Part shown: in pieces, positions 36,742-49,370 of the stretch
Position numbering within the stretch: the first letter of the stretch is position 1
How the letters are laid out: every line of letters begins with the position of its first letter
NCBI GenBank assembly: GCA_903838705.1
Contig: CAILZL010000028.1
Location: forward strand, 428 to 64,427
Direction: 5' to 3'
Source: an uncultured Pseudomonadota bacterium
Lineage (GTDB): Bacteria; Pseudomonadota; Gammaproteobacteria; Steroidobacterales; Steroidobacteraceae
Length of the DNA stretch: 64,000 nucleotides
Made by a program: the position numbers and the translations under genes
The notes under the pieces: generated by a model
Told to the model about the DNA's origin: nothing
Database searches by the model: none
What the model saw: the letters and a program-made list of their open reading frames with translations, nothing else

Positions 36742-38463
36742 TTAGAGGACGGACAGATGCTCTACCACCATCTGCAACCGTTCCTCACCGCGAAACTCGT
36801 TCACATCCAGTCGATACGCCAGCTGCACCCGGTCACCGGCTCGCACCTGCGGTGCAGCGTCATGATCGAAATGACGAAAGGCAATGGCTTCGATTACCTG
36901 ATCACCCGCATCGACTTTCAGTTTGAGATGCCGCTCACCCAGTACGCGTGAATCAATCACCGCAAACTCGCCGTCAAACATGGGTTCAGGAAATCCCTGC
37001 CCCCACGGTCCGGCGTCCCGTAATTGTCTGGCAGTTTCCAGCGAGCATTCACTGAACTGAAGTTCGCCATCACTGAACACCACCCCGATGGCATCATCCT
37101 GAGTCATCCAGCGACTGACTTCCGTATCAAACGCAGCGCGAAAGCTCTCCAGCTTGTCAGCGCCTATAGACAGACCCGCCGCCATCGCATGACCTCCAAA
37201 CTTGTCAATCAATCCCGGATGGTGTGCCACCACCGCATCCAGCACATCACGAATGTGCACACCGGGTATGGAACGCGCCGAACCTTTCAGGGTTGTTTCA
37301 TCCGCCATCGCCATGGCAATCACCGGACGATGCACGCGATCCTTTACTCTGGATGCCACCAGCCCTACGACTCCCTGATGCCAGGATGCCTCATACAGAC
37401 ATAGCCCCAAGGGCAGAGATTCAGTATCCAGCTGCATCTGCTCCAGGATACTCATGGCTTCATCCTGCATCTGCTGTTCAATGTCGCGACGATCAAGATT
37501 CAACTGTGTCAGTTGTGCAGCGATCGTGCGCGCCTCATCGGGATCGTCAGTGAGCAGACATTGAATTCCCAACGACATGTCATCCAGTCGTCCTGCGGCA
37601 TTCAGTCTCGGCCCAACCTGAAAGCCCAGATCAGCTGCCATGCAGGTTTCAATCCTTTTATTAGCTGCCTCAAGCATGGCACGTATACCGGGCACACAAC
37701 AACCTGCGCGGATGCGCCTCATACCCTGCGCCACCAGAATACGGTTATTGGCATCCAGCGGCACGACATCTGCCACTGTCCCCAGCGCCACCAGATCCAG
37801 CAGCTGTGCGACCGACGTCCTGTCACCTGCAGCCAATCCCCGCAGCACCATTGCACGCGTCAATGCCGCCATCAGATAAAACGCCACGCCGACACCGGCC
37901 AGCGCCTTGCTGGAAAATGCATTCCCCGGCGCATTGGGATTTACGATGGCAGCGGCTTGCGGCAGCTCTGCACCGGCCAGATGATGATCTGTAACCAGTA
38001 CGGGAATACCGAGTGAGTTGGCTGCAGCCACACCTGCCAGACTGGAAATACCGTTATCAACAGTGATGATCAATTCCGGATTGCGCTGCGCAGCCAGTGC
38101 AACAATCTCCGGCGTCAGCCCATACCCGAAGGTAAAACGGTTGGGCACAAGAAAATCGACATGCAAATATCCAAGCCGGCGCAACTGTCTGACCACCAGC
38201 GCAGTACTGGTGGCACCGTCAGTATCAAAGTCGCCGATGATGATGATTCGACTCTGCTGCTGAAAATGCTGGAGCAACAACTCGACAGCCGCATCCACGC
38301 CTCCCAGTTCACCCACCGGAATCATGCATTCCAGCGAGTAATCCAGTTCACGTGAGGCAGTCACACCACGCATGGCATACAACCTGGACAGCAATGGCGA
38401 AGCATGCAGGTTGAGCGATGCACCTTCAGGCAAGGTACGACGGCGGATGATGCGCTTGCTCAA
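36742..38463 (-). CDS. recJ: Single-stranded-DNA-specific exonuclease RecJ
   Basis: It has DHH motifs (IIGDFDTDGATS, LVTDHH) and the DHHA1 motif GGHAMAAG. 573 aa. Confidence 0.93.
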   Translation of the reverse strand: MSKRIIRRRTLPEGASLNLHASPLLSRLYAMRGVTASRELDYSLECMIPVGELGGVDAAVELLLQHFQQQSRIIIIGDFDTDGATSTALVVRQLRRLGYLHVDFLVPNRFTFGYGLTPEIVALAAQRNPELIITVDNGISSLAGVAAANSLGIPVLVTDHHLAGAELPQAAAIVNPNAPGNAFSSKALAGVGVAFYLMAALTRAMVLRGLAAGDRTSVAQLLDLVALGTVADVVPLDANNRILVAQGMRRIRAGCCVPGIRAMLEAANKRIETCMAADLGFQVGPRLNAAGRLDDMSLGIQCLLTDDPDEARTIAAQLTQLNLDRRDIEQQMQDEAMSILEQMQLDTESLPLGLCLYEASWHQGVVGLVASRVKDRVHRPVIAMAMADETTLKGSARSIPGVHIRDVLDAVVAHHPGLIDKFGGHAMAAGLSIGADKLESFRAAFDTEVSRWMTQDDAIGVVFSDGELQFSECSLETARQLRDAGPWGQGFPEPMFDGEFAVIDSRVLGERHLKLKVDAGDQVIEAIAFRHFDHDAAPQVRAGDRVQLAYRLDVNEFRGEERLQMVVEHLSVL

Positions 38464-39485
38464 GACAGAAGTTCCGCAACGTCATGGCCTCTGCCATTCA
38501 ACCAGCGACGCACTTGCTGCCAGCGCCCTCCCTGCAAGGAGACCATCCAGTGATCGAGATGCAAATCGAGGCGCCTGATTTCACCACTTAGCAAAGCGGT
38601 GTGCAGTGGCGCCAGCCACCTTGTTTCAATTTCTGTCATCGGATCGGGAGGAAGCACCAGCAAGACCTGCTCTGCGTCCACGCCCGGCAACGACTGAGCA
38701 TCCGGCGGCAACGGCCAGCAATCAACTTCAAGATGTTCACACAAGCCCCGCACATAGGATGCGTTGCTGATTACCCGTGTCGGGCATGGCCGCGTCACCA
38801 GTCCCAGCGGCGCATTTCCCCAGAGCCACAGGGCATTCACCGGCAGCAGCCCACGAGCTTCGCGTTGCTGATTCACAGGATGGTCATGCAGCAGCATCTG
38901 CACCTCCGTCATCAGTCTGCGCAATTCACCTGAATCGGCTCCCTGCGGCATCAGATCGTACAGACCCGCAGATGAATGGCTGCGCAAAGAAAACGTCGTC
39001 AGCTGCAACTCCCGGTCACACCACAGGTACCAGTGCCCGCCGGCATCTTCAGTTGCATGCAGCAGTTCAAATCCGGCCAGCGACAGCAGTGGCTGCAAAC
39101 TTTGCAGCAGCTGTGCAGATTGCTCGCCTGTCAGAGGCGATGGCATGAGGCAGCGCACATCATCCATTCCTGCCTGAAAGTGTACGGGCTCGACATGCAG
39201 ACAGCTTCCTCTGCGACGAACGCCGCCCTCACCCCGCCAGCTCAATGCCGCAGCGGCAAGGCCATGCTGACGCAACTCAAGCGGCAGCGCATACAGCAAT
39301 GATTGCTGCCAGAGTTCAACCCGCGCATGGAATAAATCTTCCTGCTGCCACAGACGGGTTCGTTCGCCCTGTTGCAGACAGGCTTGCAGCAGCGGCAATG
39401 CCTGCGGTGCCGTTTTCTCTTGTTGCAGTTGTCGCAAGTGACCCAGCGCTTGCGGTATCACCATTTGCAGATGCTGAATCGCCAT
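38460..39485 (-). CDS. Conserved hypothetical protein upstream of recJ, possibly RpfE-type as in Xanthomonas (from memory)
   Basis: 341-aa ORF whose stop overlaps the recJ start. It is Leu/Gln/Arg/Trp-rich with no motif I can assign. The lysS-prfB-recJ-X order recalls the Xanthomonas rpf-region layout. Confidence 0.5.
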   Translation of the reverse strand: MAIQHLQMVIPQALGHLRQLQQEKTAPQALPLLQACLQQGERTRLWQQEDLFHARVELWQQSLLYALPLELRQHGLAAAALSWRGEGGVRRRGSCLHVEPVHFQAGMDDVRCLMPSPLTGEQSAQLLQSLQPLLSLAGFELLHATEDAGGHWYLWCDRELQLTTFSLRSHSSAGLYDLMPQGADSGELRRLMTEVQMLLHDHPVNQQREARGLLPVNALWLWGNAPLGLVTRPCPTRVISNASYVRGLCEHLEVDCWPLPPDAQSLPGVDAEQVLLVLPPDPMTEIETRWLAPLHTALLSGEIRRLDLHLDHWMVSLQGGRWQQVRRWLNGRGHDVAELLS

Positions 39486-42901: not shown

Positions 42902-43195
42902 ATGCGCCTTGCTCAAACTCTCACGCTGCTGCTCGCCAGCCTGACCTGCGTCGCTGCCGGGTCAGAAGATGTTGCCCTGCCCGCCAACAGGACAGAGACG
43001 GCCGCACCTTCCGGAACCGCAACGACTGTCACCACGCCGGCACGCGGTGCCAGCATGGCGCAGGTGGAAGCACAGTACGGCGCACCGACAGAACGTCATT
43101 CCGCCATCGGAAACCCGCCCATCACTCGTTGGGATTACCCTGGTTTCAGCGTCTTCTTCGAACACCAGCATGTGGTACACAGCGTGGTGCGCTGA
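42902..43195 (+). CDS. Small secreted/lipoprotein-like conserved hypothetical
   Basis: It has a GGAGA Shine-Dalgarno 8 nt before the ATG at 42902, a signal peptide MRLAQTLTLLLASLTCVAAG, and a conserved-looking C-terminus PPITRWDYPGFSVFFEHQHVVHSVV. Confidence 0.65.
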   Translation: MRLAQTLTLLLASLTCVAAGSEDVALPANRTETAAPSGTATTVTTPARGASMAQVEAQYGAPTERHSAIGNPPITRWDYPGFSVFFEHQHVVHSVVR

Positions 43196-43387
43196 AGCTG
43201 CTGTTGGTTGATTCCATTCGATATGAACGTAGTGAGGCTCATCAGCAACGGGCACTTCATATTCACCCATTCAGGCTGGCGCGTAAAATCAAAGCCATAT
43301 ATCAATGGGGCTCTTCAGAAGAAGTGGCCCTGACAATTTGAACAACAAAACGCGCCTCCTTGAATGATGCTTCGCGGTTAAGTTCCC

Positions 43388-43800
43388 TCAGCGAGCGTCA
43401 GCACAATTGAAGAACACGGAATCGGGCATGAGCTGGTCAAGTAACGCATGCTGACGACGGGTATTGTAGAACTGAAAGTGGCGTGTCACTCCGGCTTGCG
43501 TGGGGCTCGCGGTTTCTTAGGTACGCGGGTAGACTGCCTCGTACTTCACTAACTTGCTTAACCGTTCGACAAATACCTTGTCACCTCAATGACCTCTGCC
43601 ATACATCCTGATGCGGATGTCACGTTCCTTGAGCACGACGATGAACTCCAGCTTGGTGAACTGGCTGACCTGATCGGTGTTGAAAACCCCGGAACAACCA
43701 TATTTGGCCAGTACGTACTTCAACGCTTCGACACAGAAGTCCGTGGTCAATGTGTTCGACAGCCGCAAGGCGAGTACCTTATAGGTATACTTCGCAATTT
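43388..43800 (-). mobile_element. IS3-family (IS407-like) transposase orfB remnant: 5'-truncated integrase-core fragment with in-frame stops
   Basis: My minus-strand translation gives ...KVLALRLSNTLTTDFCVEALKYVLAKYGCSGVFNTDQVSQFTKLEFIVVLKERDIRIRMYGRGH*GDKVFVERLSKLVKYEAVYPRT*ETASPTQAGVTRHFQFYNTRRQHALLDQLMPDSVFF. This is the rve/DDE core and C-terminus of IS3 transposases. It has no N-terminal half and no orfA, and two internal stops interrupt the frame. Confidence 0.8.
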
Positions 43801-43916
43801 ATAGAGTAATGAATGCCATTAATCACCTGATTATAAATCGCAATAACAAAAGACTGTAGAAGCGGAGACCGACTGATGGGAGACGAACTCTGTTCGTTTC
43901 GGTCAATGGAAAAACG

Positions 43917-46900
43917 ATGACAACTGTGAATTTAGACTCTTCCGTGCTGACATCTGCGCTTGAACAGTTACGCCTCAAGCTCTTGGATCTCACCGGCCGA
44001 AATCGCCTGATTAATTTCAAGCATGCTGCTGGAAAATCACTTCAGTTCATAGAAGGTCAACCAGCGGCGATCTACAAGAGACTGGTCGAAGCAAATAACA
44101 AAGACAACATCAGCATCCTCGGGTTACCAGAACCCGCCAGAGGAGACTGGGTGGAGCGCAACGGTCGCTTGCAAAGACCCGACCCTCGGGAATGGGCCAA
44201 GTCTCAGGGGATCACAACAAGCTACGACATTCCTGTTGCCGGCGAGAGCTCTTATAACTCGAATGTCCGAACACTTATGTACCCCGACGATCTCGCGAAG
44301 CACTGCCGCAAGATTGAGCGTGAGGCCACGCTCGCTATTGAGGAAACGGGCGCAAACATGCTGTTCTTGGTGCTTGGATTCTTAGAATTTCCAGACCAGC
44401 GTGACAGCGACAAGACCTTCACTTCACCCTTGATCAGCGTCCCAGTGTCGTTGCAGAAAAAGGAAATCGCGGGTATCCAGCAATTTTCGCTCCAGTACAC
44501 AGACGATGATATCTCCGAGAACCTTTCTCTTCGAGAGAAACTTCGCAATGACTTCGGATTGATCTTGCCTGAACTCGCCGAAGAACAGATCGACGTAAAC
44601 GACTACTTCACCAAGATTCAGTCAATCATCAAGCAGCAACCTGGTTTCGCACTCAAGCATCGTGTTTCCTTGTGTTTGCTGAGCTTTAGCAACATGCTGT
44701 TGGTGAGAGACCTTGATCCGACCAAATGGCCATCAAACGGGGATGAAAACTCTCTCATTGACCATCCAATCGTCCGCGAGGTGTTCGAAGGCAGAGCCGA
44801 TAAAGGCGGAGCGGGACTCAGTTTGGCTGAGGAACATCTGGTGGAAGAAAGCCCTGGCGCCAGCATCCCATTGGTCTATGACGCTGATAGTTCTCAGCAC
44901 AGCGCCCTAATCGATGTCCTGTCGCTCAAGAAAAACCTAGTGATCGAAGGCCCACCGGGAACCGGCAAGTCTCAGACCATCACAAACCTGATCGCGGCCT
45001 GCCTTGCAGAAGGCAAGAAGGTGCTTTTCGTCGCCGAAAAGCTGGCTGCTCTTGAAGTCGTAAAAAACCGCCTGTCGCTGGCTGGCCTAGATCCGTTTGT
45101 TCTTGAGCTGCACAGTAACAAGACTAACAAGAAGCGAGTCTTAGAGGAAATTGCCAAGCGAACCGCCTTCAGGCCCAAATATCCAAATGATCTCCCCCGA
45201 TTGCAACAGCAGTTGGAGGCTCATCGCCAAGATCTCAAAGCCTACACAGACCTGATCAACTCCGTCGCTCACAACGCGTTTGGCTTAACGCTCCATCAGA
45301 TCATGTGGCGAGCTGAGAAACACCGCAAAGGTCTGAGCAACGACGAAGGCATGCTCAGCCAGATCAAAATCAGCGATGCAACGCAAATATCCGAATTCGA
45401 ATTCGGTCGTCGCATGGACTGTCTGGGGTATCTCGGGTCCCAATACAAGCTGGTTGGTGGCTTTGACGCAAGCAGCACCTTCTGGGGCTTCTACCCTGAA
45501 CGTCTGATTCCCGGAGATGAAGTTAGTCTCGCCAAGTTATTTGAGGCGGCTAATGGATGGTCTCGAACCTTTGTGGATGACGCGAAGCACTTCTCGCAAG
45601 TGCTCGGAGGCCAAGTCTACAACCTTTCACTGGCTTTCAGCGGCGATCAACTCACCGTACTGAAGAGTCTGCTCGAGACTGCCAATCAGCAGTTACCACT
45701 TCACCTCATCCCTGGTTTCTTTGAGGGTGATGAGACAGGAACTAAAGCGGCCCAGGCGATTGACGCATTCGCCAAACAGGTCGAGCAGTTCCATAGCCTT
45801 GCGGGATCCGTCAATACAGCCCTGAAGCTGGAGACCAGCGTTACTAAATCGGTCGCAGAAGATCTCAAGAGTCTGCAACGAATCGCTAGTAGCTTGGGCG
45901 CGGAACTGGGTACGCTCAACGATCTGCGCACCCTGCATCAGCACCTCGTTGAGGCTACTGGCAAACTCTCAACGGCTGATGCCAACCTGATCGGTTTCCT
46001 CAACGGAAAGGGCATCCCCTATGACGGATCAAAGCAGAAGCTAGAGCAGTTGCTCAGTTTTACCGATCTCGTGTTGGATGCACCTGAGGAGCACTTCCAT
46101 CTCCAAACCCCCGGACTGACTCACGATGGTGCAGTTCAGGCCATTGATCAGTTACTTTCTCTTCAAGGAGAATGGACCAACCTTGAAAAAGAACTCGGGG
46201 ACTCGCTCTATGTAGATGCCCTGCCGCATGAAGAAGACATCAAGCAAGCCATCCTAGCCCTGCGAGAAGGCGACACGTGGTATCGCATCTTTCAAAGCCA
46301 GTGGCGCAAAGCTGTAGGGTTGCATAAAGCACTCCAGCGCACCAAGATCAAGATACCAAGCCATAAGCGGCTGGAGCAGCTCGAGCAAATCGTCAAATTG
46401 CTGGGCCTTAAAGAGCAATGGAAGTCATCACCTACTTGGACGCAGTTCCTCAGCTTCCCTGCGCCAGCAATTCCCTCCCCGCTTGAGAAATATCTTGCTC
46501 TGGCGCTATGGAATCGTGGAATCAAGATCGCCTTTGAAGAAATTCAGACTGTACTGATCGACCCAATCAGCTTTACCGCCGACCAAGCCCGAGCGCTGCG
46601 CCGTGAATTCTCGATGGTCAAGCTGGAGATCACGACTGCAATCGCAGCCTGTAGCGACATAAATGAAAAGCTCAAACGCCTCACGGAATTCAACGGCAAC
46701 CATCTCATCGGCAAAACGCTCGAGAAGACAGGAGAGTTCACGAAAGCACTTCATGACCGATTCGAGTGGCTTGAGCTGGAGGCGCGGAGCCAGGCCACGT
46801 ACAGCCAAGTAATCACTGGATGCGATGCTGCCTTGGAGCGCTCGGCGATGAAATCGCAGATTCAAGCCAATACCCGCGTTAAGTCGCTCCTTGGCGATCT

Positions 46901-49370
46901 CTATCTGGACGTGGGCACAGACTGTTCAACCGCCCTCGAAGCGCTGTCCTTCGGTCAAAGTATCGATGGTCTCAACTTGTCGCCACAGATCAAGTACAAG
47001 CTGCGCACTGGGCATCCTCTTGAAGCCTGTCGAACTCTAGCAGCCGCGCTGGAGTCCGTTTGCACGGGGCTACAGCAGGTTGAGAGGTTGTGCAACTCCG
47101 TGTCTGAGTTTGGAAAACTTGAACTTGATACATGGACGGGCGCACCGGCAGACGAGGACTTGGAGGCATTTGCCAGCGCCCTGCATCGCTCAGTTCGACA
47201 GGCTATTCAGGATAAGGACCAGCTGATTCCCTGGTCGCTGTATTTGACCCGTCGCAAGGAAGCCTGTGAACTGACATTGGCCGAATTTGTGGATCTTCTC
47301 GAGAGAAAACGAGTCAGGCCCGACGAGTTGCAAGACGCCTATGCCTATTGCACTTACAGCACGATAACTCGCGAAGCCTTCCGGACCATTCCCCAACTGG
47401 GGCGGTTCACAGGACTCAAACACAACCAGATTCGCGATGAGTTCAAGCGGCTAGACAAGGAGATCACTGCTTTGCGAGGGAAAGCCATCGCCTACGAATG
47501 TGCCCGCAAGGCCTCTCCGACACCCGGCAGAAATGGTGCCCGCGTTGACGACCGAACTGAGATGGTTCTCTTGAATTATCTGATGCCTCAACAACGGCCA
47601 CGCATGCCCGTTCGGAAAATTCTGACCCGAGCGGGTCAATCGACCCAGGCACTCAAACCCTGCTTCATGATGGGTCCTCAAGCCGTGGCCCAATACCTAG
47701 CTCCAGGCGTCATCAAATTTGACCTCGTTATCATGGACGAAGCATCCCAGTTGAAGCCCGAGGAAGCTATCGGCTCGGTTGCACGCGGTGGTCAATTGGT
47801 AGTGGTCGGTGACCCCAAGCAGCTGCCCCCGACCTCGTTCTTCTCACGGATGTCTCAAGACGGTGACGGTGGTGACGATCACTTCACCACTACGGATGCC
47901 GAGAGCATCCTAGACGTCTGTTCATCGCATTTCAGGCCAACCCGCTCTTTGCGTTGGCACTATCGCTCACAGCACCATTCGCTGATCGCCTTCTCGAACC
48001 ACAGCTTCTACCGCGGCAATCTGGTGATTTTCCCCTCGCCTTATGGGCAAGGGGGCAAGCTAGGCGTTCGAGCTGTTTACTTGGCCGACGCCATCTACGA
48101 AAACCAAACAAATCTGCGCGAAGCCAAGCGGGCCGTGGACGCAGTCGTCGAGCACATTGCATCCCGCCCTAACGAGTCCCTTGGGATCGTAACGCTGAAC
48201 ATCAAGCAGCGTGACTTGATTGCCGAACTGCTGGAAGAGCGCCTTAAGTCTGCTCGGGGAGCGGACTCCTATCGAGATCACTGGGCTACGGAGGGGCAAC
48301 CCCTGTTCATCAAGAACCTTGAAAACGTCCAAGGTGACGAGCGAGACGCCATCATCATCTCAACGACATTTGGCAAGCCACCAGGTTCCAACGCTGTTCG
48401 CCAGAACTTCGGCCCTATCAGTCGACAAGGCGGGTGGAGACGACTGAACGTGCTTTTCACCCGTGCCAAGAAGTCAATAGCGCTTTACACGTCCCTGCGT
48501 CCAGAGGACATCGTGATGGATGGCACTACTCCGGACGGCACTAAGGCGCTTCGCAACTACCTCGAATACGCACGTACTGGTTTATTGACAACCCTCGAGG
48601 AAACGGATCGAGAACCAGACAGTGATTTCGAGATCACCGTCATGGACATGCTCAAACTGCGTGGCTACGAAGTCACGCCACAGCTAGGCGTAGCGGGCTA
48701 CCGCATCGACATTGCCGTAAAGCACCCTGACGCTCCCGGTTCCTATCTGGCAGCGGTAGAGTGCGACGGCGCTACCTACCACTCGGCCTTGTCAGTCCGT
48801 GATCGCGATCGCATCCGTCAAGAGATACTCGAGTCGCTCGGATGGCGTGGCCGTATTTGGCGTATTTGGTCAACAGACTGGTTCCGCACTCCACGACAAG
48901 AAACAGAGAAGCTCATCGGCTTCCTTGAGGATCTCCGAAAAAGCTGGAAACCCGAGCACGCTGCCGGAGAAGCTTGGATCGAAGAAGGGCAAGGTGCATG
49001 GCAACCTACTATTCGCATCACTAAGCAAGTTGAAACTGTTGAGAACACAGCTCAAGCCGAGATCGAGCGAGAGACGGTAAGCTCTGTACTGATCGACACA
49101 GAAGACGATTTGGAAATCGAGGTAGGAGATTTTGTTCGATATATTGATCTTGCACGCCCTAACGACGTTATGTCAGTCCAGATCACCAGAGGCAAAGACG
49201 ACTTTGCCAACGGGATTGTGAATGAAAGCCGTCCTCTAGCACAGGCAATACTCGGTGCCGTAGTCGGTGACGAGGTAGTGCTTCACCTTGCTGGAAGCGC
49301 ATCAAAGACGTTCCAAATCGTGGATATTAAGAGATCACGGGACATGCAACCTATAAGCGTCACGATATGA
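43917..49370 (+). CDS. 1817-aa DUF4011-like / Upf1-like SF1 helicase / Vsr-DUF559-like PD-(D/E)xK nuclease / GreA-GreB-C-terminal-like fusion protein (candidate Hhe-like defence helicase-nuclease)
   Basis: Single uninterrupted ORF. The N-terminus has LKLLDLTGRNRLINFKH and LFLVLGFLEF...SPLISVPVSL, which are DUF4011-like. The helicase motifs are Walker A GPPGTGKSQT (about aa 345), Walker B VIMDEASQ (about aa 1271), VVVGDPKQLPPT, RWHYRS, VQGDERDAIIIS and RLNVLFTRAKKS. The nuclease core is GYRIDIAV...AVECDGATYHS (about aa 1571-1676). The C-terminal VGDFVRY...NESRPLAQAILGAVVGDEVVL resembles the GreA/B C-terminal domain. Confidence 0.85.
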   Translation: MTTVNLDSSVLTSALEQLRLKLLDLTGRNRLINFKHAAGKSLQFIEGQPAAIYKRLVEANNKDNISILGLPEPARGDWVERNGRLQRPDPREWAKSQGITTSYDIPVAGESSYNSNVRTLMYPDDLAKHCRKIEREATLAIEETGANMLFLVLGFLEFPDQRDSDKTFTSPLISVPVSLQKKEIAGIQQFSLQYTDDDISENLSLREKLRNDFGLILPELAEEQIDVNDYFTKIQSIIKQQPGFALKHRVSLCLLSFSNMLLVRDLDPTKWPSNGDENSLIDHPIVREVFEGRADKGGAGLSLAEEHLVEESPGASIPLVYDADSSQHSALIDVLSLKKNLVIEGPPGTGKSQTITNLIAACLAEGKKVLFVAEKLAALEVVKNRLSLAGLDPFVLELHSNKTNKKRVLEEIAKRTAFRPKYPNDLPRLQQQLEAHRQDLKAYTDLINSVAHNAFGLTLHQIMWRAEKHRKGLSNDEGMLSQIKISDATQISEFEFGRRMDCLGYLGSQYKLVGGFDASSTFWGFYPERLIPGDEVSLAKLFEAANGWSRTFVDDAKHFSQVLGGQVYNLSLAFSGDQLTVLKSLLETANQQLPLHLIPGFFEGDETGTKAAQAIDAFAKQVEQFHSLAGSVNTALKLETSVTKSVAEDLKSLQRIASSLGAELGTLNDLRTLHQHLVEATGKLSTADANLIGFLNGKGIPYDGSKQKLEQLLSFTDLVLDAPEEHFHLQTPGLTHDGAVQAIDQLLSLQGEWTNLEKELGDSLYVDALPHEEDIKQAILALREGDTWYRIFQSQWRKAVGLHKALQRTKIKIPSHKRLEQLEQIVKLLGLKEQWKSSPTWTQFLSFPAPAIPSPLEKYLALALWNRGIKIAFEEIQTVLIDPISFTADQARALRREFSMVKLEITTAIAACSDINEKLKRLTEFNGNHLIGKTLEKTGEFTKALHDRFEWLELEARSQATYSQVITGCDAALERSAMKSQIQANTRVKSLLGDLYLDVGTDCSTALEALSFGQSIDGLNLSPQIKYKLRTGHPLEACRTLAAALESVCTGLQQVERLCNSVSEFGKLELDTWTGAPADEDLEAFASALHRSVRQAIQDKDQLIPWSLYLTRRKEACELTLAEFVDLLERKRVRPDELQDAYAYCTYSTITREAFRTIPQLGRFTGLKHNQIRDEFKRLDKEITALRGKAIAYECARKASPTPGRNGARVDDRTEMVLLNYLMPQQRPRMPVRKILTRAGQSTQALKPCFMMGPQAVAQYLAPGVIKFDLVIMDEASQLKPEEAIGSVARGGQLVVVGDPKQLPPTSFFSRMSQDGDGGDDHFTTTDAESILDVCSSHFRPTRSLRWHYRSQHHSLIAFSNHSFYRGNLVIFPSPYGQGGKLGVRAVYLADAIYENQTNLREAKRAVDAVVEHIASRPNESLGIVTLNIKQRDLIAELLEERLKSARGADSYRDHWATEGQPLFIKNLENVQGDERDAIIISTTFGKPPGSNAVRQNFGPISRQGGWRRLNVLFTRAKKSIALYTSLRPEDIVMDGTTPDGTKALRNYLEYARTGLLTTLEETDREPDSDFEITVMDMLKLRGYEVTPQLGVAGYRIDIAVKHPDAPGSYLAAVECDGATYHSALSVRDRDRIRQEILESLGWRGRIWRIWSTDWFRTPRQETEKLIGFLEDLRKSWKPEHAAGEAWIEEGQGAWQPTIRITKQVETVENTAQAEIERETVSSVLIDTEDDLEIEVGDFVRYIDLARPNDVMSVQITRGKDDFANGIVNESRPLAQAILGAVVGDEVVLHLAGSASKTFQIVDIKRSRDMQPISVTI

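Follow-up and report, generated by a model that had tools for sequence, protein, structure and literature searches.

The window analysed here is a stretch of 64,000 nucleotides from an uncultured Pseudomonadota bacterium of the family Steroidobacteraceae (contig CAILZL010000028.1, positions 428 to 64,427, numbered below from its first letter). On its forward strand, at 43917-49370, lies a gene for a protein of 1817 aa whose open reading frame (ORF) and Pfam, NCBIfam and PADLOC matches describe a DUF4011 domain, an Upf1-like superfamily 1B (SF1B) helicase, an MTES_1575 (Vsr-like) nuclease and a GreA-like tail. Between the Walker A and Walker B motifs of this helicase stand 918 residues, which we judge with a probability of roughly 80% to be a genuine, selected, all-alpha accessory module, set into an Upf1-like RecA1 (1A) domain between motifs Ia and II, in the position of domain 1C, and belonging to the standard architecture of the DUF4011 anti-phage helicase-nucleases, a known and very large family that includes Hhe, ProA and PDC-S37. 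A gap of about 920 residues is standard for this family and not peculiar to the gene in the window.

A RecA1 domain predicted to be split between motifs Ia and II

The Walker A motif GPPGTGKS occupies residues 345-352 (nucleotides 44949-44972), and the Walker B motif VIMDEASQ occupies residues 1271-1278 (nucleotides 47727-47750). Residues 353-1270 lie between them, 918 in all or about 921 when the count runs up to the D of DEAS, which bears out the original prediction from the sequence that about 925 residues (44973-47726) separate the two motifs. In the 64-kb window the back-translated P-loop pattern is found once, and in shuffled sequence 0 times. A cryptic Walker B nearer to Walker A had been named as something that could overturn this picture, and none exists: the expression hhh(h)D[DE], run over the entire protein, matches only LVIMDE at residue 1270, and with a single hhhhDE motif there is no hidden Walker B closer to Walker A.

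The motor is identified as an Upf1-like SF1B helicase by matches to AAA_11 (59.8 bits) and AAA_12 (50.0 bits), which clear the 27-bit Pfam cut-off. The N-terminal end of AAA_11 falls at residues 325-388 and its C-terminal part at residues 1267-1307. The N-terminal half of RecA1 (residues ~320-400; 44874-45116, forward strand), with Walker A and motif Ia, is recognised by the N-terminal parts of AAA_11 and AAA_30 and aligns to residues 190-256 of IGHMBP2; the C-terminal half, with Walker B, stands together with RecA2 at 47652-48536 on the same strand, where AAA_12 matches residues 1396-1522. A sequence and family-profile search of the PDB matched the motor to IGHMBP2, Sen1, DNA2 and Upf1. In IGHMBP2, the best sequence relative in the PDB, Walker A and Walker B are separated by about 150 residues (HMMER alignment), and the insert is indeed, as had been claimed, far larger than those of solved Upf1-like helicases.

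An AlphaFold2 model of residues 310-1400, built with 40 diverse homologues, has a mean predicted local distance difference test score (pLDDT) of 84.4 and a predicted template modelling score (pTM) of 0.45. In this model, residues from about 405 to about 1246 are nearly all helix, arranged in helices of 15-37 residues, and a second model restricted to core residues 675-1075 is likewise nearly all helix (pLDDT 92.3, pTM 0.71). The predominantly helical character first read from the letters is thus reproduced at high confidence. The accompanying description of the insert as rich in Leu, Glu, Gln, Ala and Lys holds in that these residues are abundant (L 13.7%, A 9.7%, E 7.1%, K 6.6% and Q 6.0%, with T at 6.3%), but their enrichment over the whole protein is only mild.

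When the model was searched against 48,161 PDB representatives, its two RecA1 halves jointly superposed on IGHMBP2 (Z 19.3, root-mean-square deviation (rmsd) 3.4, 196 residues aligned, 25% identity) and on Upf1 (Z 18.1), Dna2 (18.0), Sen1 (17.4), Aquarius (17.3) and ZNFX1 (16.5). Only about 190-260 of the roughly 1045 spanned residues align in these superpositions, and the P-loop and DEAS would therefore share one RecA1 domain; in the model, an interruption of about 840 helical residues separates its motifs Ia and II. This is the site at which the original prediction had expected an Upf1-like accessory insertion; in Upf1, Sen1 and Aquarius the RecA1 insertion at this place is called 1C, prong or pointer. 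The eukaryotic Upf1-like helicases (IGHMBP2, Upf1, Sen1/SETX, Dna2, Aquarius and ZNFX1) share the RecA1 fold and motifs of the window protein (Z 16.5-19.3, 13-28% identity), but their insertions are far smaller, they lack DUF4011 and the Vsr-like nuclease, and none aligns to the 840-residue helical module.

Searches of the insert for known domains gave little. Pfam returned nothing at E <= 0.1 beyond a chance-level match to DUF2913 (E 0.022), and NCBIfam and PADLOC returned only whole-family models. The PDB sequence and family-profile search that had matched the motor gave only compositional matches for the insert (designed helical bundles, methyl-accepting chemotaxis proteins, SNAREs and a tape-measure protein), and the nearest clusters in the ESM Atlas were exclusively unnamed hypothetical proteins. 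Isolated-model fold searches covered residues 675-1075 of the insert; with that model, Foldseek found no PDB match better than E 0.12, and a wide search with VIA reached at best Z 7.1 (rmsd 4.4, 118 residues aligned), a value that the tool itself states to be background for helical models. Foldseek matches of the residue 310-1400 model to MukB, SMC (structural maintenance of chromosomes) proteins and dynein, with TM-scores (template modelling scores) <= 0.08, were set aside as not meaningful.

Insert length across DUF4011 helicases

Among 121 close homologues (78-99% identical), the gap from Walker A to Walker B measures 920-923 residues. Searched alone against 1.84 billion cluster representatives, the insert matched 7291 of them at E <= 1e-3 and 666 at E <= 1e-30, and in dozens of proteins of about 1800 residues it was matched end to end at the same position. 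About 80 of the 106 representatives having both motifs show gaps of 896-937 residues, with minor classes near 555, 750, 950-1030 and 1190-1230, in a sample that is biased by having been picked with the insert itself.

An unbiased sample came from 401 genomes of the phylum searched with the DUF4011 domain alone. The domain was present in 45 of them, mostly in frames of 1450-2400 aa (an unpublished genome, G383, is counted here and is used for none of the other claims). Twenty DUF4011 ORFs were taken, and in all 19 that have both motifs the gap lies between 620 and 927 residues: ten at 620-638, two at ~740, three at 841-842, two at 877, one at 927 and one, L041, at ~630 after a spurious early motif match is discounted. 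An NCBIfam scan of five of the DUF4011 ORFs identified the protein with the 927-residue gap, L051, as a bona fide Hhe (2433 bits, cut-off 2000) and proteins with gaps of 743, 841 and 877 residues as bona fide ProA, while a protein with a 620-residue gap scored 1465 bits on the ProA model, slightly under its cut-off of 1500.

The length of the insert thus fails as a mark of an unusual gene, since bona fide Hhe has 927 residues at this place and bona fide ProA has 743-877. As for the possibility, raised at the outset, that the segment is a set of well-known domains of standard length, its second half describes what we found (620-927 residues in 19 of 19 ORFs) and its first half does not, known domains having been found neither by Pfam nor by PDB-sequence nor by fold searches.

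Among all matches there was one insert-less form, P0322, a protein of 963 aa from another metagenome, which jumps from just past motif Ia to DPKQLPPTSFF, so that both the insert and Walker B are gone. Because Walker B was lost together with the insert, this protein is a deletion derivative of the DUF4011 helicase family. No natural insert-less form that keeps Walker B was found, the other short matches being fragments at contig ends.

Relationship to Hhe, ProA and PDC-S37

The DUF4011 domain of the window protein (residues 21-209; 43977-44543, forward strand) matches PF13195 over the full profile, positions 1-158, at 123.8 bits against a cut-off of 22.2, and the Vsr-like PD-(D/E)xK nuclease domain (residues 1571-1668; 48627-48920, forward strand) matches MTES_1575, PF18741, at 117 bits against 38.2. 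A DUF4011 domain, a giant helical insert of at least about 600 residues and a C-terminal Vsr/MTES_1575 nuclease are the features that define the DUF4011 helicase-nuclease superfamily, and the protein has all three. Sequence comparison places it there as an Hhe-like and PDC-S37-like member, a cousin of Hhe and an orthologue of neither.

Hhe (HheA; Gao_Hhe; NCBIfam NF042953), a name said to originate in the 2020 work of Gao and colleagues, has the same order of parts: DUF4011, a split RecA1 with a giant helical insert, RecA2 and a Vsr/MTES_1575 nuclease. The Hhe model aligns collinearly in one stretch (window residues 14-1708 against model positions 1-1718 of 1797), and by the same measure the gap is 921 residues in the window protein and 927 in the bona fide Hhe L051. 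The two proteins are about 35% identical, the score of 1365.9 bits falls below the 2000-bit equivalog cut-off, and the window protein, unlike Hhe, carries a GreA-like tail. With ProA (NCBIfam NF058533, 'anti-phage protein ProA') it shares the superfamily, the domain order and the conserved edges of the insert, but it scores 1080.1 bits against a cut-off of 1500, matching model positions 358-1741 only, and in bona fide ProA proteins Walker A is preceded by about 200 more N-terminal residues and the insert is shorter (743-877 residues). These scores lie below the equivalog cut-offs of both models, and any anti-phage activity of the window protein is therefore extrapolated from its relatives.

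The best PADLOC match, judged by rank with no curated cut-off shown, is PDC-S37 (1189.3 bits, E = 0), ahead of the PADLOC Hhe model at 890 bits. PDC-S37 is a computational phage-defence candidate and not a validated system. Its profile is shorter (1550 positions) and matches in three stretches, so that the central core of the insert is not modelled collinearly. A literature search returned no paper that describes or tests the insert of DUF4011 helicases, and none on ProA.

The tail that sets the window protein apart from Hhe (residues 1734-1805; 49116-49331, forward strand) resembles the C-terminal domain of GreA/GreB, with a PF01272 match of 23.6 bits that stays under the cut-off of 26.9. With a profile of the family, E. 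coli GreA (1grj) is found at E 1.4e-4, and the match, over GreA residues 12-155, extends beyond the C-terminal domain given by Pfam. The C-terminal region at 49020-49370 (residues 1701-1817) has the highest ratio of nonsynonymous to synonymous substitution rates (dN/dS) in the protein, about 0.2.

Anatomy and selection within the insert

The insert has two layers, a pair of moderately conserved basic edges and a divergent acidic core. The N-terminal edge (residues 401-470; 45117-45326, forward strand) is helical with a net charge of +7, and the C-terminal edge (residues 1091-1245; 47187-47651, forward strand), also helical with a net charge of +11, leads back into RecA1; lysine and arginine together make up about 20% of both. 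Between them the distal core (residues 471-1090; 45327-47186, forward strand) has a net charge of -20 and is modelled by AlphaFold2 as all-alpha bundles, with pLDDT values of 80-97. In BLASTP comparisons with proteins of other size classes, alignment continues up to residues ~448-522 and resumes from residues 935-1100 onwards; the centre cannot be aligned between size classes, and the proximal parts, both edges among them, are common to all DUF4011 helicases.

Conservation follows the same division. Measured as mean identity to the window protein in 37 distant relatives, it is 60-68% for the RecA1 and RecA2 motor (68% in the N-terminal half of RecA1), 33-34% for the edges of the insert (34% N-terminal, 33% C-terminal) and 13-23% for the core. 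Estimates of dN/dS, which are approximate, rise in the same order, from 0.01-0.03 in the motor (0.01 in the N-terminal half of RecA1) through 0.02-0.09 in the edges (0.02-0.05 N-terminal, 0.05-0.09 C-terminal) to 0.12-0.13 in the core against seven orthologues that are 85-88% identical; against two more distant orthologues, where synonymous divergence (dS) exceeds 2, the core gives 0.05-0.06. These ratios indicate that the insert evolves under purifying selection, more relaxed than that on the motor. Gaps take up 0-5% of positions across the regions and 1-5% in the core, and the length of the core is therefore conserved while its sequence drifts.

Few individual residues stand out in an alignment of 76 homologues. 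Only G524, A799 and W865 are conserved at >=85% in the core, and those at this level in the C-terminal edge include L1103, W1106, R1173, D1180, G1204 and R1233. The 76 aligned homologues share no conserved motif of catalytic type in the insert, Rx4-6H pairs included, in keeping with the earlier statement that no catalytic motif could be recognised there.

Internal duplication and size classes

Two segments of the core are copies of one another, a tandem duplication of a unit of 100-147 residues. Copy 1 spans residues 828-926 (46398-46694) and copy 2 residues 975-1070 (46839-47126), both on the forward strand; hhalign aligns them with a probability of 95-97% (E 1.4e-8 to 2e-11) at a period of 147 residues, and a hidden Markov model (HMM) of the repeat finds them at E 1.6e-17 and E 2.1e-22, respectively. 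Both show the same helix pattern in the model of residues 675-1075. Iterating the HMM search four times widened the envelopes but gave no further copies, and weak echoes at residues 681-764 and 546-634 (E 0.009-0.02) are not significant.

Other members of the family differ in what they hold of this unit. The short ProA-type proteins that were scanned have one copy at E <= 0.01. Proteins of the ~1200-residue class (P0150, P0161 and others; about 2100 aa in length, with gaps of 1191-1233 residues) have, by BLASTP offsets, two extra blocks of about 145 residues compared with the window protein, and these blocks carry internal repeats of their own, 63-81 residues long (HH probability 89-95%). It is a tentative suggestion of ours that the core is a length-calibrated helical arm resized by tandem duplication, that the size classes (~620, 740, 840, 880, 920 and 1200 residues) are functional subtypes, and that the arm sets the geometry of motor, DUF4011 domain and nuclease or senses phage.

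Possible roles of the insert

We infer that the insert acts as a scaffold, gate or sensor arm. Most likely, its basic conserved edges (residues 401-470 and 1091-1245) would pack on RecA1 as a stalk and line the path of the nucleic acid, by analogy with the stalk, prong and pointer elements of Upf1, Sen1 and Aquarius, which lie near this path. The acidic core of kept length (residues 471-1090) would then be a rigid arm or scaffold, which could position or gate the DUF4011 N-terminal domain and the Vsr-like nuclease with respect to the motor, or could alternatively serve as a surface for binding proteins. Translocation would be powered by ATP hydrolysis in the reassembled RecA1/RecA2 core.

Several points weigh against the accessory-module reading or limit how far it can be taken. 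The support for the insert consists of sequence comparison and predicted models; the pTM of 0.45 means that the large model does not place the arm reliably against the motor; and dS is ~0.9-1.0 in the close pairs, near saturation, which leaves dN/dS approximate. The window protein lies under the cut-offs of both Hhe and ProA, and the fast drift of the core sequence would be compatible with a sensor surface too.

That last point leads to the most serious rival, in which an arms race has shaped the distal core into a surface for specificity or sensing that would bind phage proteins or phage-induced structures and switch on the motor and nuclease. The core is the most divergent region of the protein, with 13-23% identity where the motor has 60-68%; it exceeds the motor about tenfold in dN/dS, and its acidic surface argues for contacts with proteins and against nucleic-acid binding. 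The hhe system of E. coli, a single gene with helicase and nuclease domains whose mechanism is not established, is reported to be triggered when Bas63 g40 or several T7 class II genes are expressed and countered by other phage genes (10.1101/2024.10.10.617714). However, dN/dS across the core as a whole, a region-level measure, is that of purifying selection at 0.12-0.13, the rigid length (1-5% gaps) is more what one expects of a structural ruler than of a variable sensor, and the PhageMaP authors argue that activation follows from the functions of the triggers and not from their direct recognition (10.1101/2024.10.10.617714). We regard a sensor surface as possible but doubtful.

An arm of SMC or Rad50 type, a coiled coil that dimerises or entraps DNA, seems improbable. 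The layout is formally analogous, with an ATPase split by about 900 helical residues; MukB, Smc5/6, condensin and JetC are the top Foldseek matches of the residue 310-1400 model; and the Rad50 coiled coil (Z 6.9) and JetC (Z 5.7) can be superposed on the core. Yet the TM-scores of those matches are only 0.05-0.08 with rmsd values of 38-100 Å, and the Z values lie under the tool-stated background for helical models. The modelled helices are only 15-37 residues long and not continuous, a crude scan for a heptad coiled-coil signal found no 28-residue window with >=7/8 of its a/d positions occupied by LIVM, and the ATPase has a RecA-like SF1 fold and not an ABC head.

Even less probable is a second enzyme hidden in the insert, such as a degenerate HEPN-type RNase built on a four-helix bundle. 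A preprint does list Gao_Hhe among HEPN-containing systems (10.1101/2024.10.26.620412), and the core resembles four-helix bundles, 2rld among them (Z 6.8, rmsd 2.4, 75 residues aligned), but this similarity does not rise above background. Conserved R..H pairs occur only near residues 1343-1353, in the helicase motif region, and no Rx4-6H pair is conserved in the insert; none of the three core residues conserved at >=85% is catalytic in type, and neither HEPN nor any other Pfam family matches at E <= 0.1.

Finally, the idea that the gap is an artefact of gene fusion, misassembly, an intein or a mobile insertion in an ordinary helicase gene has only the unusual length in its favour and is refuted by an uninterrupted reading frame, by the recurrence of the architecture in thousands of cluster representatives as well as the 121 close homologues, by purifying selection on the insert, by the lack of any intein or transposase domain in Pfam, and by the fact that the sole short form, P0322, is also without Walker B and hence a deletion derivative.

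Genomic setting and spread

Housekeeping genes flank the gene in the window: upstream, on the minus strand, stand lolCDE and recJ, and downstream follow mfd, a rhodanese gene and proS. Between the lol genes and recJ lies an ORF of 341 aa (38460-39485, minus strand) with no Pfam match at E <= 1e-3. GC content is 0.50-0.53 over 43000-47000, which covers the left half of the gene and the region upstream of it, whereas the flanks with lol and mfd have 0.56-0.59 and the 3' half of the gene (47000-49000) comes close to the host value.

Proteins that are 85-88% identical to the window protein occur in Extensimonas and Brachymonas (Comamonadaceae), Acidithiobacillus, Rhodocyclaceae and Zwartia (Alcaligenaceae) (loci L052-L070). 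Such identity with dS of ~0.9-1.0 implies that one gene lineage has probably spread widely by horizontal transfer across orders and classes. None of these genes adjoins lol, and only one has mfd within 7 kb. In the neighbourhoods inspected (L053, L058, L070, L065, L052 and L069), the genes are found in defence islands, beside Wadjet-like JetC/JetA (a JetC-like SbcC-type ATPase and DUF3375), GmrSD type IV restriction, methylase and specificity genes of type I restriction-modification (HsdM/HsdS) and a PRTase-CE protein, and in the closest relatives a gene for a WYL-domain regulator of 304 aa lies 40 bp upstream of the helicase gene (L053, 6046-6960). Because its 85-88% identical counterparts adjoin Wadjet, GmrSD, type I restriction-modification genes and the WYL regulator, a defence role of the gene is suggested, and the comparison supports its being a mobile defence gene.

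The copy in the window has a truncated upstream region. DNA homology to L053 begins at nucleotide 43789, and a remnant of the WYL-regulator gene, its last ~18 codons, is found at 43823-43876 on the forward strand (67% identity over 18 aa in a tblastn search with the WYL protein of L053). It is abutted by what reads, from the sequence, as a decayed fragment of an IS3-family transposase gene (43388-43800, minus strand). With only these last codons left beside the IS3 fragment, the window copy appears to have lost its presumed regulator and native promoter region.

Implications for DUF4011 defence proteins

Hhe-type proteins are validated single-gene anti-phage systems, and the helical module makes up half of each protein. 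Its role is probably key to how these proteins sense infection and control their nuclease. To this question the present analysis adds the two-layer anatomy of the insert, its internal duplication, its discrete size classes and the signature of purifying selection. In a DUF4011 helicase, a giant gap between the two Walker motifs should not count as an anomaly, and the function of the arm in Hhe-type defence is a question for the whole family and not for this gene.

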